9,310 nucleotides of DNA, taken from IMG/VR virus record IMGVR_UViG_2663762948_000005. The stretch is one strand, 5' to 3'. The number at the start of each line of letters is the position of its first letter. Within the stretch, counting starts at the first letter, position 1. The translations under genes were made by a program, and so were the position numbers. The DNA comes from a virus (lineage: Duplodnaviria; Heunggongvirae; Uroviricota; Caudoviricetes). This document shows positions 1,606 to 9,310 of the stretch, piece after piece. The notes beneath the pieces were generated by a model. The model ran no database searches. It saw nothing but the letters and a program-made list of their open reading frames with translations, and was not told where the DNA came from.

Positions 1606-2031
1606 TCAATGCACAGCCACAATATTTCCTGCAGGGCCACCACGATTCATCTGGTTGAAACCAGCGATCGCCACTGCGACAAAATCATCAGCGTCTCTCA
1701 CCAGTCGTTCCCGCGTCTCCACTAGTTCCCGAAAATAGGCTGAGCTATGGCTGCGCATTCGGGCCACCAGCAGAGGTGGCATTGCTTTTTCGATAGCTGG
1801 TAACAACGCCTGAATTTTTTCAACTGCATCAGGGGTGTCTTTCTCTACCCAGCGGAAAATTTTCTGGGTATTGCGAGCCAGGGCTTCCGGATGGCTGTCG
1901 TCATACAGTTCTGGGAACGTCATACCCAGTTCAAAATAAGCCCTGGTTATTTCAGCTGCCGGAACTTTTTCACCGTCCGGATGCGCCCAGGCATTCATCG
2001 CCATGCGGATGTGTTCATGCTTGATTTTCAT
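1606..2031 (-). CDS. ydaT: YdaT-like protein (proposed CII-like regulator, also described as a toxin), 141 aa
   Basis: ATG at 2029-2031 with AGGAG 8 nt upstream on the minus strand. N-terminus MKIKHEHI matches my recollection of Rac YdaT. Overlaps the upstream ydaS-like gene by 17 bp. Confidence 0.6.
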   Translation of the reverse strand: MKIKHEHIRMAMNAWAHPDGEKVPAAEITRAYFELGMTFPELYDDSHPEALARNTQKIFRWVEKDTPDAVEKIQALLPAIEKAMPPLLVARMRSHSSAYFRELVETRERLVRDADDFVAVAIAGFNQMNRGGPAGNIVAVH

Positions 2032-2296
2032 GAATCAAGCTCCTAGAAAGTGGTTGTGTTAACATTTTGGTATCTTCCAGCTCGGGCCAAATATTCATCC
2101 AATCAAAAGGCCTTAGTTGCTGACGTGTAACTTCACCATTACTGGCTCGCTCAATAAGGACACATAACGATGCCCCTAACACTTGACCTTTACTCAATGC
2201 CTTTCTTAGATAACCGATGCTGGTACCACACTCGCATGCAAACATACGCTGTTCATCTGACGAAAGAGAATTGAGAAATATTCTTAATTCTTCCAT
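2015..2296 (-). CDS. ydaS: YdaS-like Cro-type HTH protein, 93 aa
   Basis: ATG at 2294-2296 with AAGGAG 5 nt upstream on the minus strand. Divergent from the repressor gene across a 100-bp operator region. Contains an ...IERA..GEVTRQQLRP... motif typical of the YdaS/Cro-like family, from memory. Confidence 0.6.
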   Translation of the reverse strand: MEELRIFLNSLSSDEQRMFACECGTSIGYLRKALSKGQVLGASLCVLIERASNGEVTRQQLRPFDWMNIWPELEDTKMLTQPLSRSLIHENQA

Positions 2297-2321
2297 AGCT
2301 ACTCCTTAGTAAACACAGCAA

Positions 2322-2404
2322 AGAATACCCATAGGTAAACAAAAGTCAATACCCACAGGTTGTTTACCTTGCAGTAATCGCATCTATTATTTACCTATGG
2401 ACAA
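2322..2404. promoter_or_regulatory. divergent promoter/operator region between ydaS-like and racR-like genes with three TACC-N4-GGTA sites
   Basis: Sites TACCCATAGGTA 2326-2337, TACCCACAGGTT 2350-2361 and TACCTATGGACA 2392-2403. Putative leftward promoter on the minus strand: TTGACT (complement of 2344-2349), 16-bp spacer, TATTCT (complement of 2322-2327). Putative rightward -10 TATTAT at 2385-2390, 6 bp before the racR ATG. Confidence 0.5.
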
Positions 2405-2816
2405 ATATGAATTTAGACGACAGCAACTCATCAAAATTCGTGATGAGAAATGCGATGGTAAAGCGGTTAACGTGGCCAGAAAGATCGGGCGCGAGCCTTC
2501 TTATGTATCAAGAATGTTGTACCCAGAGGGGAAAAAGGGAAAAAAACGGATCGCTGATGATATGGTGGAGATTATCGAAGAGTCCTTTGGGTTACCCCGG
2601 GGATGGATGGATGGTATCGTTTCATCATCAACGAACACAGCCTCCAGTTATGAAACAAGGGTTCTAACGCCACGACAACGTATTTTTTTAGATCTCTTAG
2701 ACGAACTGCCAGAAAGTGAAGCGGATAACTTATTAAAAACTCTTGAAGAGAAAAAACAGTATTACAATATGATCTACGAAGAAATCCGTAAAAAGAAAGC
2801 ACAAAACGCATCATAG
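2397..2816 (+). CDS. racR: RacR-like CI-type prophage repressor, 139 aa
   Basis: ORF with N-terminal HTH-like segment (AVNVARKIGREPSYVSRML). Divergent from the ydaS/ydaT-like genes and flanked by palindromic operator-like sites. No Shine-Dalgarno before the ATG, so it is a candidate leaderless transcript. Identity with K-12 RacR is not verified. Confidence 0.65.
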   Translation: MDKYEFRRQQLIKIRDEKCDGKAVNVARKIGREPSYVSRMLYPEGKKGKKRIADDMVEIIEESFGLPRGWMDGIVSSSTNTASSYETRVLTPRQRIFLDLLDELPESEADNLLKTLEEKKQYYNMIYEEIRKKKAQNAS

Positions 2817-5140: not shown

Positions 5141-6524
5141 ATGAGCACAAAACCACTCTTCCTGTTACGGAAAGCGAAAAAATCATCCGGTGAACCTGAC
5201 GTCGTCCTGTGGGCAAGCAACGATTTTGAATCGACCTGTGCCACTCTGGACTACCTGATCGTTAAGTCAGGTAAAAAACTGAGCAGCTATTTTAAAGCTG
5301 TTGCCACGAATTTTCCTGTCGTTAATGACCTGCCCGCTGAAGGTGAGATCGATTTTACCTGGAGTGAACGCTATCAACTCAGCAAAGACTCCATGACATG
5401 GGAACTAAAACCGGGAGCAGCACCAGACAACGCTCACTATCAAGGCAATACCAACGTCAACGGCGAAGACATGACTGAGATTGAGGAGAATATGCTACTC
5501 CCAATTTCTGGCCAGGAACTGCCCATTCGTTGGCTTGCTCAACACGGCAGCGAAAAACCGGTAACGCACGTTTCACGCGACGGACTCCAGGCATTACACA
5601 TTGCTCGGGCTGAAGAACTACCGGCTGTTACTGCCCTGGCTGTTTCCCACAAAACCAGCCTGCTCGACCCGCTGGAAATTCGCGAACTCCACAATCGTAG
5701 AAGACATAGAGCCAGGTATTTATTACGGAATTTCGAATGAGAATTACCACGCGGGTCCCGGTATCAGTAAGTCTCAGCTCGATGACATTGCTGATACTCC
5801 GGCACTATATTTGTGGCGTAAAAATGCCCCCGTGGACACCACAAAGACAAAAACGCTCGATTTAGGAACTGCTTTCCACTGCCGGGTACTTGAACCGGAA
5901 GAATTCAGTAACCGCTTTATCGTAGCACCTGAATTTAACCGCCGTACAAACGCCGGAAAAGAAGAAGAGAAAGCGTTTCTGATGGAATGCGCAAGCACAG
6001 GAAAAACGGTTATCACTGCGGAAGAAGGCCGGAAAATTGAACTCATGTATCAAAGCGTTATGGCTTTGCCGCTGGGGCAATGGCTTGTTGAAAGCGCCGG
6101 ACACGCTGAATCATCAATTTACTGGGAAGATCCTGAAACAGGAATTTTGTGTCGGTGCCGTCCGGACAAAATTATCCCTGAATTTCACTGGATCATGGAC
6201 GTGAAAACTACGGCGGATATTCAACGATTCAAAACCGCTTATTACGACTACCGCTATCACGTTCAGGATGCATTCTACAGTGACGGTTATGAAGCACAGT
6301 TTGGAGTGCAGCCAACTTTCGTTTTTCTGGTTGCCAGCACAACTATTGAATGCGGACGTTATCCGGTTGAAATTTTCATGATGGGCGAAGAAGCAAAACT
6401 GGCAGGTCAACAGGAATATCACCGCAATCTGCGAACCCTGTCTGACTGCCTGAATACCGATGAATGGCCAGCTATTAAGACATTATCACTGCCCCGCTGG
6501 GCTAAGGAATATGCAAATGACTAA
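5141..6524 (+). pseudogene. recE: recE (exonuclease VIII) disrupted by an internal out-of-frame deletion; N-terminal 183 codons and the C-terminal exonuclease domain lie in different frames
   Basis: ORF 5141..5740 begins [30 protein letters not shown]... (RecE N-terminus as I recall it), stays RecE-like to ...[10 protein letters not shown] (ends 5692), then reads a 15-aa unrelated tail and stops. In another frame, from about 5694 ([23 protein letters not shown]...) to the stop at 6522-6524, the sequence is the RecE C-terminal nuclease domain and overlaps the recT start by 8 bp as expected. The total span is about 1.38 kb against about 2.6 kb for K-12 recE (866 aa, from memory). Confidence 0.7.
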
Positions 6525-7326
6525 GCAACCACCAATCGCAAAAGCCGATCTGCAAAAAACTCAGGGAAACCGTGCACCAGCAGCAGTTAAAAATAGCGAC
6601 GTGATTAGTTTTATTAACCAGCCATCAATGAAAGAGCAACTGGCAGCAGCTCTTCCACGCCATATGACGGCTGAACGTATGATCCGTATCGCCACCACAG
6701 AAATTCGTAAAGTTCCGGCGTTAGGAAACTGTGACACTATGAGTTTTGTCAGTGCGATCGTACAGTGTTCACAGCTCGGACTTGAGCCAGGTAGCGCCCT
6801 CGGTCATGCATATTTACTGCCTTTTGGTAATAAAAACGAAAAGAGCGGTAAAAAGAACGTTCAGCTAATCATTGGCTATCGCGGCATGATTGATCTGGCT
6901 CGCCGTTCTGGTCAAATCGCCAGCCTGTCAGCCCGTGTTGTCCGTGAAGGTGACGAGTTTAGCTTCGAATTTGGCCTTGATGAAAAGTTAATACACCGCC
7001 CGGGAGAAAACGAAGATGCCCCGGTTACCCACGTCTATGCTGTCGCAAGACTGAAAGACGGAGGTACTCAGTTTGAAGTTATGACGCGCAAACAGATTGA
7101 GCTGGTGCGCAGCCTGAGTAAAGCTGGTAATAACGGGCCGTGGGTAACTCACTGGGAAGAAATGGCAAAGAAAACGGCTATTCGTCGCCTGTTCAAATAT
7201 CTGCCCGTATCAATTGAGATCCAGCGTGCAGTATCAATGGATGAAAAGGAACCACTGACAATCGATCCTGCAGATTCCTCTGTATTAACCGGGGAATACA
7301 GTGTAATCGATAATTCAGAGGAATAA
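6517..7326 (+). CDS. recT: RecT, single-strand annealing recombinase, 269 aa
   Basis: ATG at 6517 with AAGGA 8 nt upstream; the track start at 6460 is an over-extension. Translation [42 protein letters not shown]... matches my recollection of K-12 RecT. Overlaps the recE 3' end (ATGACTAA). Confidence 0.9.
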
Positions 7327-7334
7327 TTCAGCCT

Positions 7335-7353
7335 GGCGGTGTAATGCACCGCC
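7335..7353 (+). other. 7-bp stem / 5-nt loop hairpin immediately after recT
   Basis: ggcggtg (7335-7341), loop taatg, caccgcc (7347-7353). A TTTTTT run (7365-7370) lies 11 nt downstream, not adjacent. Possible attenuator or RNA-processing element in front of ralR. Confidence 0.3.
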
Positions 7354-7382
7354 AACTTGAAATATTTTTTATGAGAAAAATT

Positions 7383-7577
7383 ATGAGATATGACAATGTT
7401 AAACCATGTCCATTTTGTGGTTGTCCATCAGTAACGGTGAAAGCCATTTCAGGATATTACCGAGCGAAGTGTAACGGATGCGAATCCCGAACCGGTTATG
7501 GTGGAAGTGAAAAAGAAGCACTCGAAAGATGGAATAAACGAACCACTGGAAATAATAATGGAGGTGTTCATGTATAA
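7383..7577 (+). CDS. ralR: RalR (Lar), restriction alleviation protein / DNase toxin of the RalR-RalA type I TA system, 64 aa
   Basis: ATG at 7383; the track start at 7344 is an over-extension. Translation MRYDNVKPCPFCGCPSVTVKAISGYYRAKCNGCESRTGYGGSEKEALERWNKRTTGNNNGGVHV matches my recollection of K-12 RalR. Has a CxxC...CxxC zinc-ribbon-like pattern. Confidence 0.75.
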   Translation: MRYDNVKPCPFCGCPSVTVKAISGYYRAKCNGCESRTGYGGSEKEALERWNKRTTGNNNGGVHV

Positions 7578-7779
7578 AATTACCGCCACTATTGAAAAGG
7601 AAGGTGGCACTCCTACTAACTGGACAAGATATTCAAAATCTAAACTAACGAAATCAGAATGCGAAAAAATGCTCTCAGGTAAAAAAGAAGCAGGCGTTTC
7701 CAGAGAGCAGAAAGTAAAACTGATAAATTTTAATTGCGAGAAACTTCAGTCCTCGAGAATTGCATTGTATTCAAATTAA
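7570..7779 (+). CDS. ydaC: YdaC, small Rac prophage protein, 69 aa
   Basis: ATG at 7570 with GGAGG 5 nt upstream; overlaps the ralR 3' end by 8 bp. Translation MYKITATIEKEGGTPTNWTRYSKSKLTKSECEKMLSGKKEAGVSREQKVKLINFNCEKLQSSRIALYSN matches my recollection of K-12 YdaC. Confidence 0.7.
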   Translation: MYKITATIEKEGGTPTNWTRYSKSKLTKSECEKMLSGKKEAGVSREQKVKLINFNCEKLQSSRIALYSN

Positions 7780-8074: not shown

Positions 8075-9310
8075 ATGTCTAAATTACCAACAGGTGTCGA
8101 GATTAGAGGTAGATACATTCGCATCTGGTTCATGTTTCGAGGAAAACGATGTCGGGAAACATTAAAAGGCTGGGAGATTACAAACAGTAATATTAAAAAG
8201 GCCGGAAATTTAAGATCGCTGATAGTTCATGAAATAAACTCCGGTGAATTTGAGTATTTAAGACGTTTTCCCCAGTCCAGCACTGGGGCAAAAATGGTGA
8301 CAACGAGAGTCATAAAAACGTTCGGAGAGCTTTGTGATATCTGGACAAAAATTAAAGAGACAGAGTTAACAACAAACACAATGAAGAAAACGAAATCACA
8401 ATTAAAAACACTCAGAATAATAATTTGTGAAAGTACCCCGATATCACATATTCGTTATAGCGATATCTTAAACTACCGGAATGAACTGCTGCATGGAGAA
8501 ACGCTTTACCTGGATAATCCAAGATCCAACAAAAAAGGAAGAACCGTGCGCACAGTTGATAACTATATCGCCCTGCTCTGTTCGCTGTTGCGTTTTGCGT
8601 ATCAGTCGGGATTTATATCAACTAAACCATTTGAAGGAGTAAAAAAATTACAGCGAAACAGAATAAAGCCTGATCCGTTATCTAAAACAGAATTCAATGC
8701 ATTAATGGAAAGTGAAAAAGGACAGAGCCAGAACTTGTGGAAATTTGCCGTTTACTCAGGACTTCGTCACGGGGAACTGGCAGCTCTGGCGTGGGAGGAT
8801 GTGGATCTCGAAAAGGGAATAGTGAATGTCAGAAGAAACCTGACGATACTTGATATGTTCGGTCCCCCAAAAACAAATGCCGGGATCCGAACAGTAACAC
8901 TACTGCAGCCTGCTCTTGAAGCACTGAAGGAGCAATACAAACTGACCGGGCATCATCGCAAAAGCGAAATCACCTTTTATCATCGGGAGTACGGCAGAAC
9001 CGAAAAGCAAAAACTGCATTTTGTTTTCATGCCCAGGGTGTGTAACGGAAAACAAAAACCTTATTACTCGGTAAGCAGTTTGGGGGCAAGGTGGAATGCA
9101 GCAGTAAAACGTGCTGGTATTCGCCGCCGTAATCCGTACCATACGCGGCATACTTTTGCCTGCTGGCTGTTGACGGCAGGAGCGAACCCGGCATTTATAG
9201 CCAGCCAAATGGGGCATGAAACTGCGCAGATGGTGTATGAAATTTACGGTATGTGGATTGATGACATGAACGACGAACAGATAGCCATGTTGAATGCGCG
9301 GTTATCGTAG
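8075..9310 (+). CDS. intR: Rac prophage tyrosine integrase, 411 aa
   Basis: ORF starts 1 nt after the xis stop. The C-terminus contains ...HTRHTFACWLL... and ...MVYEIYG..., consistent with the tyrosine recombinase catalytic region. Matches my recollection of K-12 IntR. The stop is the final codon of the window. Confidence 0.9.
   Translation: MSKLPTGVEIRGRYIRIWFMFRGKRCRETLKGWEITNSNIKKAGNLRSLIVHEINSGEFEYLRRFPQSSTGAKMVTTRVIKTFGELCDIWTKIKETELTTNTMKKTKSQLKTLRIIICESTPISHIRYSDILNYRNELLHGETLYLDNPRSNKKGRTVRTVDNYIALLCSLLRFAYQSGFISTKPFEGVKKLQRNRIKPDPLSKTEFNALMESEKGQSQNLWKFAVYSGLRHGELAALAWEDVDLEKGIVNVRRNLTILDMFGPPKTNAGIRTVTLLQPALEALKEQYKLTGHHRKSEITFYHREYGRTEKQKLHFVFMPRVCNGKQKPYYSVSSLGARWNAAVKRAGIRRRNPYHTRHTFACWLLTAGANPAFIASQMGHETAQMVYEIYGMWIDDMNDEQIAMLNARLS

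Follow-up and report, generated by a model that had tools for sequence, protein, structure and literature searches.

A probable lambda-type right operator with recurring 12-bp sites and a putatively leaderless repressor gene in a Rac-type prophage of Escherichia coli

Introduction

In phage lambda, CI repressor bound to the second site of the right operator (OR) is centred near -42 from the promoter for repressor maintenance (PRM) and activates this promoter, and the cI mRNA made from PRM is the classical case of a leaderless transcript. Here we describe a region that is probably the right operator of a lambda-type immunity switch, positions 2297-2404 of a 9,310-nucleotide stretch of phage DNA (IMG/VR record IMGVR_UViG_2663762948_000005), in the following called the window. 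Judged by its alignments, the window belongs to a cryptic prophage of the Rac type in Escherichia coli, with an immunity module unlike that of K-12. An earlier reading of the bare letters, here called the original prediction, had seen in this region a lambda-like switch with three copies of a palindromic motif, placed between a leftward ydaS-like gene and a rightward repressor gene that it named racR and took to be leaderless.

The closest described systems are found in two E. coli prophages. The RacR/YdaS/YdaT switch of the K-12 Rac prophage has been characterized in several studies (PMC9638921, PMC5700373, PMC11879457). The K-12 racR gene has three inverted-repeat operators, of which O1 lies on PydaS, and its strongest promoter, which is required for expression, gives a leaderless transcript as seen by primer extension (PMC9638921). 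In prophage CP-933P of O157:H7, paaR2 was found to be leaderless by rapid amplification of 5' cDNA ends (5' RACE), N-terminal sequencing and mass spectrometry (PMC8630535). The operator of YdaT was defined by footprinting in CP-933P (PMC9986795), and the K-12 YdaT operator, also footprinted, has one difference (PMC11879457). The architecture of such a switch, the leaderless repressor gene included, is already published for K-12 Rac and CP-933P, whereas the repressor family, the 12-bp operator and the regular layout that we report here appear to be undescribed so far.

The locus in the window has the same prophage backbone and gene order as K-12 Rac, in which the divergent repressor and ydaS-ydaT genes also stand about 100-120 bp apart. 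K-12 Rac likewise has a second operator pair flanking a promoter of the left (PL) type downstream of the repressor gene, and a YdaT box whose spacer contains the ydaT ATG. The operators themselves are different, (T/A)TAGGC-n3-GCCTA(T/A) in K-12 as compared to TACC-N4-GGTA in the window, and while O3 of K-12 lies over the ATG, the conserved third site of the window lies over a -35 hexamer. The K-12 YdaS protein is only locally similar to its counterpart, YdaT is 33% identical, and RacR is unrelated in sequence. CP-933P likewise has a short gap (97 bp) with a right promoter (PR) and PRM, repeated operators over both, and a left operator (OL) and PL region (PMC8630535), YdaT as an analogue of CII acting on TTGATT-N6-AATCAA (PMC9986795), and a small, non-cleavable repressor. 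Its operators are different too, being 18-bp repeats with the half-site GTTTAGTAA, and paaR2 is followed by the paaA2-parE2 toxin-antitoxin pair, which has no counterpart in the window.

The window shares with lambda a tripartite OR between divergent promoters, with a weak middle site at about -42 and a third site over the repressor promoter, and separate OL/PL functions and functions of CII and the promoter for repressor establishment (PRE). The lambda sites are 17 bp long with spacings of 24 and 23 bp, whereas those in the window are 12 bp long with spacings of 24 and 15 bp, and there are three OL sites in lambda against two in the window. The S24 self-cleavage domain of lambda CI is absent from the repressor of the window, and the places of Cro and CII are taken by YdaS-like and YdaT-like proteins. 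The phages mEp043 (NC_019706) and CharmingMan, known to us from sequence records only, likewise have three sites in the gap between cI and cro, two more sites 25-26 bp apart downstream at the annotated PL, and a -10 hexamer 6-7 nt before the repressor ATG. Their repressors differ in having a C-terminal S24 (LexA-like) domain and should, because of this domain, be inducible by the SOS response; mEp043 also uses a lambda-type CII and an N antiterminator, unlike the window. We found no published operator study for mEp043 or CharmingMan. DicA of the Qin prophage and the CI protein of phage Tritos are similar to the repressor of the window in size, are also non-cleavable and have a homologous C-terminal helical domain, but their N-terminal DNA-binding domains and their operators are different.

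Results

Predicted operator sites in the gap and downstream of the repressor gene

Two divergent open reading frames (ORFs), one of 93 amino acids at 2015-2296 on the minus strand and one of 139 amino acids at 2397-2816 on the plus strand, leave a gap of exactly 100 bp, 2297-2396. The motif TACCYATRGGTA, when up to two mismatches are allowed, has five matches in the 9.3-kb window as compared to 0.48 expected, and not one of 200 shuffled sequences reached five, which places the predicted motif far above chance. The looser pattern TACC-N4-GGTA with one mismatch adds TACCTTGCAGTA at 2365-2376.

The site that we call OR1, TACCCATAGGTA at 2326-2337, has no mismatches and scores 19.4 bits on a position weight matrix (PWM) built from the sites in relatives. 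It fills the spacer of the predicted PR, which runs leftward here, and overlaps its -10 hexamer TATTCT by 2 bp, the last two bases of OR1 being the first two of the hexamer. OR2, TACCCACAGGTT at 2350-2361, has two mismatches to TACCYATRGGTA, one to TACC-N4-GGTA and a score of 13.6 bits. It abuts the PR -35 hexamer TTGACT, ends 1 bp short of the -35 of the predicted PRM-type promoter, and has its centre at -41.5 relative to the repressor ATG. One site on the leftward -10 and another against its -35 are what had originally been claimed. OR3, the site at 2365-2376, has one mismatch, shares its TACC with the PRM-type -35 and scores 9.8 bits; the original prediction had missed this site, whose match is kept in relatives, and its list of three was to that extent incomplete. 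The third site that it did name, TACCTATGGACA at 2392-2403, spans the repressor ATG, has two mismatches, both in the right half, and scores 9.5 bits; it is treated here as a candidate auxiliary site. The three sites named at that time do all exist, but only OR1 is a perfect match.

Two more sites of the same system, both perfect and both left out earlier, were found downstream of the repressor gene at +462 and +487. OL2, TACCCATGGGTA at 2859-2870, is a perfect 12-bp palindrome without mismatches and abuts the -35 of a predicted PL-type promoter. OL1, TACCTATGGGTA at 2884-2895, also without mismatches, fills the spacer of this promoter and shares 2 bp with the -10 hexamer. OL1 and OR1 are exact reverse complements of each other. 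The distance between OR and OL is 558 bp, centre to centre. Outside OR and OL the best match to the operator matrix is TACCAACAGGTG at 8085-8096, with 11.3 bits; it lies 10 nt inside the integrase ORF and is probably due to chance.

Conservation of the layout in related loci

One genome per species was scanned for related loci, which gave 27 further loci beyond mEp043 and CharmingMan. Across 30 loci with 171 kb of sequence there were 106 perfect TACC-N4-GGTA sites, where 2.6 were expected from the base composition. Half of them lie between -80 and -25 from the repressor ATG, and nearly all of the others fall downstream of the repressor operon, as one pair with a spacing of 25-26 bp. In most relatives the register of the sites is -72/-73, -47/-48 and -32/-33 from the ATG. 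The counterpart of OR1 is found at -71 to -75 in almost all of them; that of OR2, at -47/-48, nearly always ends in GGTT; and that of OR3, at -32 to -35, is perfect in most. The sites in the window stand in the same register, at -71 (2326), -47 (2350) and -32 (2365). The hosts of these relatives range from Yersinia, Edwardsiella, Klebsiella, Brenneria, Pantoea, Atlantibacter and Aeromonas to Ferrovum and a metagenome-assembled genome of Hydrogenophilaceae. The PR -10 starts with the terminal TA of OR1 also in mEp043 (TAAACT) and CharmingMan (TAATAT).

Closer to the window, the E. coli variant L033 (91% identical) has its sites at -71, -32, +463 and +488, and its OR3 is perfect, TACCTTATGGTA. 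Among the E. coli and Salmonella variants the changes fall in N4 and in the spacers, and the TACC and GGTA halves and the promoter hexamers are unchanged; the OL pair is kept in L033-L035 with changes only inside N4. TACC-N4-GGTA is absent from the switch regions of K-12 Rac and phage Tritos, and no such sites were found in the most distant homologue, L031 (30% identity). The sites track the DNA-binding domain of the repressor, since they are kept both with an S24 and with a DicA-like C-terminus and are absent in Tritos, which has the same C-terminal domain as the window.

A Cro homologue is encoded upstream in every locus that bears the middle site, and with it the three-site OR, and the tcaa of the PR -35 precedes OR2 in nearly all of the cro-bearing relatives. 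The loci without Cro (L009, L011 and L013-L015 from Klebsiella, L028 and L030) have neither a middle site nor an adjoining tcaa; they do retain the site at -73, that at -33, or both, together with one or more of the downstream sites. Since the outer sites are kept without a Cro homologue, the motif seems to be tied to the DNA-binding domain of the repressor, and since the middle site is found only where a Cro homologue is present, this site seems to be tied to the divergent cro promoter. In the Klebsiella loci a conserved ttgctatatttt segment replaces the middle operator, giving a two-site variant of the control region. L013-L015 keep both the -73 and the -33 site, whereas L009 and L011 have a degenerate -33 site.

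Promoters and the start of the repressor gene

A consensus scan of the gap gave one sigma-70-like promoter per strand. On the minus strand the predicted PR has its -35 at 2344-2349 and its -10 at 2322-2327, with a 16-bp spacer and a predicted start near 2315; the leader would be about 19 nt long and carries the Shine-Dalgarno sequence of the first leftward gene. On the plus strand the PRM-type promoter is made up of TTTACC at 2363-2368 and TATTAT at 2385-2390, also with a 16-bp spacer, the -10 standing 6 bp before the ATG and the predicted start being A2397. When alternative promoters on the plus strand were sought with a looser scan, every candidate used the same -10 at 2385-2390 and the start at 2397. 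A search of the gap against Rfam gave no match. The predicted PL-type promoter, at 2871-2899 on the plus strand, has TTTACT at 2871-2876 and TATCCT at 2894-2899, 17 bp apart, with a start near 2906, and its layout mirrors the design of PR.

The 20 nt upstream of the repressor ATG, atcgcatctattatttacct, contain a single G and no Shine-Dalgarno sequence. Other start codons were considered and rejected: the reading frame contains no ATG, GTG or TTG from the stop at 2376 to the ATG at 2397, and the next in-frame start, GTG at 2472, would cut into the conserved domain. Of the 27 relatives, about 26 have a -10-like hexamer, mostly TAnnnT, upstream of the ATG at a distance of 6-7 nt (8 nt in one locus), and an (A/G)TTTACC -35 is kept, with a 16-bp spacer to the -10 where the standard layout holds. 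A Shine-Dalgarno sequence was found among them only in L030 (Orbus), aaggggggatctATG, where the operator layout is also different. The geometry that had been read as leaderless, TATTAT 6 bp before an ATG without a Shine-Dalgarno sequence, holds and recurs in the relatives. It is therefore likely that the maintenance transcript of the repressor is leaderless, with +1 at, or adjacent to, the A of the ATG.

Every related locus has an ATG start, the repressor homologues begin with MDKYE, and the upstream extensions of homologues made by gene callers are not conserved. Callers often add a few codons before MDKYE, as in L004 (2492-3169), P0009, P0028, P0036, P0041, P0064, P0087 and P0108. Such mis-extension looks like a systematic annotation error, probably because the genes lack a ribosome-binding site. 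K-12 dicA (L037, 2400-2437) has ttagcattagctaactATG before its start codon and no obvious Shine-Dalgarno sequence, and dicA may be leaderless as well.

The repressor is a predicted hybrid of two domains

The 139-amino-acid protein encoded at 2397..2816 on the plus strand is a CI-type repressor, with a helix-turn-helix (HTH) DNA-binding domain in residues 1-72, a disordered linker and a DicA-type helical hairpin at the C-terminus. It is annotated as a hypothetical protein in RefSeq. The family phrog_5736, 'transcriptional regulator', matches it from end to end (residues 1-139 against 1-133 of 133, E 4e-70), and no Pfam family matched it, hence no S24 (LexA-like) protease domain is seen. Homology to K-12 RacR (b1356) was rejected, the best BLASTP E-value being 2.3; the protein belongs to another family than the one the original prediction had given it, and the name racR can be used in a positional sense only.

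Residues 1-86 are 65% identical to CI of the lambdoid phage mEp043, and the recognition helix, PSYVSRM, is identical. Residues 1-72 (MDKYE...LPRGWMDGI) are common to many repressors at 60-82% identity with 22 invariant columns, and these relatives, which include mEp043 CI and the protein of phage CharmingMan, bear a C-terminal protease domain of the S24/LexA type (PF00717). Residues 89-134, on the other hand, are homologous to the C-terminus of DicA, with 33% identity over 46 residues and a BLASTP E-value of 1e-7; the NCBIfam DicA profile matches residues 86-136 at its positions 81-131 with E 3e-5, which is far below the whole-protein cut-off. Residues 21-139 are 39.5% identical to CI of phage Tritos, whose N-terminal domain differs. 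From these matches the repressor is a domain hybrid, in which a DNA-binding domain of the mEp043 type is joined to a non-cleavable C-terminal domain of the DicA type.

The AlphaFold model, with a predicted local distance difference test score (pLDDT) of 86.9, has four N-terminal helices, with the HTH helices predicted at 23-30 and 34-40, a disordered linker at 77-87 and a helical hairpin at 92-138. A Foldseek search with the model found XRE and lambda-repressor-like domains, the best being the Rep repressor of SPC32H (5d50, non-cleavable, from a Salmonella phage) with a weak E-value of 1e-3, and a search of PDB sequences with the repressor gave noise only (ADAR Z-alpha, E 0.08). Some E. coli alleles of the repressor (P0015, P0018) are called from an out-of-frame ATG at 2407. 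They regain the frame in a homopolymer run of A and G at about 2528-2546, and the frameshift destroys the DNA-binding domain.

The leftward operon and the YdaT box

The first gene of the leftward operon, 2015..2296 on the minus strand, encodes a YdaS-like HTH protein of 93 amino acids which is the putative analogue of Cro (phrog_35, E 1e-22). It has a canonical Shine-Dalgarno sequence, AAGGAG (2307-2302), 5 nt before its ATG. The protein is 70% identical to Cro of mEp043 and 46% to Cro of CharmingMan; it scores 25.8 bits with Pfam YdaS_toxin, below the cut-off of 30, and has local similarity to K-12 YdaS (E 1e-6). The second gene, 1606..2031 on the minus strand, encodes a YdaT-family protein, the putative analogue of CII (Pfam YdaT_toxin 39.6 bits, cut-off 21; phrog_163, 'CII-like activator'), which is 33% identical to K-12 YdaT. 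A YdaT box is found at 2021..2038, TTGATTTTCATGAATCAA, a perfect inverted repeat with no mismatches to TTGATT-N6-AATCAA and with the ydaT start codon in its spacer. A patch of 30-37 nt at this box is the sole stretch left of 2906 that is common to K-12 Rac and prophage Sp11 of O157:H7 Sakai. It is probable, from this pattern, that the YdaT box is a control site of the CII/PRE type lying inside otherwise unrelated immunity modules.

The surrounding prophage

The region is 100% identical to chromosomal prophages in many E. coli strains, and the immunity segment 2290-2905 is present in 822 of 5426 complete E. coli genomes (~15%), its carriers including O157:H7, O111 and O25b:H4 strains. In strain CP53, which has an identical locus, the annotated order is a DUF977 protein, a replication protein, a 'toxin YdaT family protein', a 'transcriptional regulator' and a 'hypothetical protein' (the repressor), followed by ydaG-like, ydaF, sieB, kilR, ydaE, racC, recE, recT, ralR, xisR and intR. 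By this annotation and by the identity to K-12 Rac, the locus sits in the Rac position between ydaG/ydaF and ydaS/ydaT.

From 2906 rightward the window is 99.7% identical to K-12 Rac, and to the left of 2906 nothing aligns to K-12 Rac except a 30-nt patch at 2008-2037. At 2906 the immunity module has a sharp recombination boundary, to the left of which the two prophages are unrelated. The homology to K-12 Rac starts at the predicted PL start, which suggests that the exchanged immunity module ends there. In a search of Sp11 alone the immunity region was not found, a 37-nt patch at the YdaT box being the sole match.

Further to the right, recE is split into two overlapping ORFs, one at 5141-5740 with the N-terminal Exonuc_VIII domain and one at 5601-6524 with a PDDEXK domain. 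Their combined length falls far short of K-12 recE and points to an internal deletion or a frameshift. The recT gene follows at 6460-7326. The product of ralR, 7344-7577 on the plus strand, is a restriction alleviation protein of the Lar type, and the RalA antitoxin small RNA (Rfam RF02694, 225 bits) lies directly downstream of ralR on the opposite strand, at 7576-7754.

Discussion

The element at 2297-2404 is probably the OR of a lambda-type immunity switch. Much of the switch that had been predicted fits about 30 loci and two analogues, namely the shared operators, the autoregulation, the repression of ydaS/ydaT and the leaderless mRNA. What did not stand were the identity of the repressor and, probably, the choice of the third site, and the OL/PL half of the system was missing.

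The mechanism that we infer, from binding and the order of occupancy to activation, looping and the start of transcription, would be as follows. Dimers of the repressor would bind the 12-bp inverted repeat TACC-N4-GGTA and in the prophage state occupy OR1 together with OR2, and OL1 together with OL2. Occupancy of OR1 would shut PR and keep the operon of cro/ydaS, ydaT and the replication gene off, with the weaker OR2 assisting. In relatives OR2 mostly ends in GGTT and not GGTA, which suggests that it is an intrinsically weak site that is filled cooperatively. Repressor bound at OR2 may also stimulate the PRM-type promoter, a positive autoregulation that is possible because the centre of OR2 is at the position from which lambda CI activates PRM. 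At high levels of repressor, OR3, and possibly also 2392-2403, would shut the repressor promoter, giving negative autoregulation. Occupancy of OL2 and OL1 would block PL and keep the arm with ydaG, ydaF, kilR and recET off, and the DicA-like C-terminal helices probably give a higher-order assembly with looping between OR and OL over the 558 bp. The Cro analogue probably recognizes the repressor's sites too, but with a reversed order of preference, and YdaT would act at its box as the CII analogue. As there is no S24 domain, the switch is presumably not released through RecA-mediated self-cleavage.

Several points weigh against this mechanism or weaken parts of it. The training sites of the PWM were picked by the same core pattern, and the scores are to that extent circular. 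OR3 has a mismatch here (AGTA), so autorepression through OR3 may be weak, and with 15 bp between OR2 and OR3, centre to centre, it is uncertain that both can be occupied at the same time. The PL hexamers are weak, with 8 of 12 consensus positions matched. A TAnnnT hexamer easily arises by chance at a single locus in AT-rich DNA, and the argument for a leaderless start rests for this reason on the fixed position of the hexamer across loci. Finally, the searchable literature yielded no binding, footprint or transcription start for the element or its repressor family.

Which site is the third operator deserves a separate discussion. It is conceivable, but rather unlikely, that the third working operator is the site at 2392-2403 over +1 and the ATG, acting, like O3 in K-12 Rac, in autorepression by blockage of the repressor promoter, instead of or alongside OR3. 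The scores of the two sites are about equal, and sites of 9.5 bits are expected 0.55 times per 9.3 kb, or about 0.006 times per 100 bp; the site ranks seventh in the window. OR3 is weakened in the window, and an extra site at the ATG could compensate. A site spanning the ATG is not implausible as such, since O3 of K-12 RacR overlaps the racR ATG (PMC9638921). The sequence of 2392-2403 is kept in the E. coli variants L033 and L034, but conservation among near-identical E. coli sequences has little weight, and in Salmonella L035 the site is degraded to TACTTATGGATA. Its two mismatches are confined to one half-site and hit positions at which 92-99% of the training sites agree with the consensus, and the right half of the site consists of conserved coding sequence, ATGGAC. 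Furthermore, it is missing from all 25 or more distant relatives; these lack a TACC ahead of the ATG and have sequences such as aaatcATGGAT there. The original prediction of a third site over the start codon probably does not hold for the main operator, and on the comparison of loci the conserved third operator is the one at 2365-2376, over the -35 of the repressor promoter.

An alternative that we consider improbable is that most of the repressor is translated from an mRNA with a leader, begun at a PRE-type promoter close to the YdaT box or at some other site upstream, and that TATTAT is not a working -10. The YdaT box in the window is perfect, and CP-933P has a PRE activated by YdaT (PMC8630535, PMC9986795); K-12 racR has two additional upstream starts (PMC9638921), and our promoter scan is a consensus match only. 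A leadered RNA would, however, still be without a Shine-Dalgarno sequence at a usable distance from the ATG, and no second plus-strand promoter was found in the gap. About 26 of the 27 relatives preserve the order of -35, 16 bp, -10, 6-7 nt and ATG amid diverging surroundings. A PRE-type transcript would also, as in lambda, supplement and not replace a leaderless maintenance transcript.

That the sites are read only by the Cro/YdaS-like protein, with the 139-amino-acid protein binding elsewhere or being no DNA-binding repressor at all, is barely credible: a Cro homologue and the three-site OR are inherited together in most loci, and the DNA-binding domain of the repressor has no Pfam family, but the Cro-less loci named above still carry TACC-N4-GGTA sites, and the protein has a confidently predicted XRE-type HTH, stands in the position of CI and has a counterpart annotated as CI in mEp043.

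With the 139-amino-acid protein as the probable reader of a switch with the third operator at the -35 and a leaderless maintenance transcript, two further readings may be considered. As RNA, the stretch 2859-2905 would let the OL operators pair in a 16-bp hairpin (dG -22.9 kcal/mol, z -5.85) which is followed by the U-rich tract UCCUUCUUUUC. The hairpin lies about 45 nt past the repressor stop, with the predicted PL start (~2906) just beyond, and the OL operator pair could double as an intrinsic terminator of the repressor transcript. The second reading concerns the role of the hybrid repressor in the host. It might silence the arms with the toxic ydaS/ydaT and kilR genes in a way that is insensitive to the SOS response and at the same time give superinfection immunity, as a domesticated phage-defence gene; we regard this as possible, with the odds somewhat against it. 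If it is true, the host would be immune to phages that share the TACC-N4-GGTA operators, for instance mEp043, CharmingMan and their relatives.

The general picture of lambdoid switches is unchanged by this locus. It does illustrate the exchange of modules at two levels, as the segment exchanged relative to K-12 Rac stops only a few bases from the predicted PL start, and as one DNA-binding domain is found with two kinds of C-terminal domain, one inducible and one not. For an immunity type that is common in E. coli, the analysis gives a testable map with five operators, three promoters and a leaderless start. In a wider perspective, one 12-bp operator in a fixed layout would serve a family of phage repressors across the Gamma- and Betaproteobacteria, that of mEp043 included.

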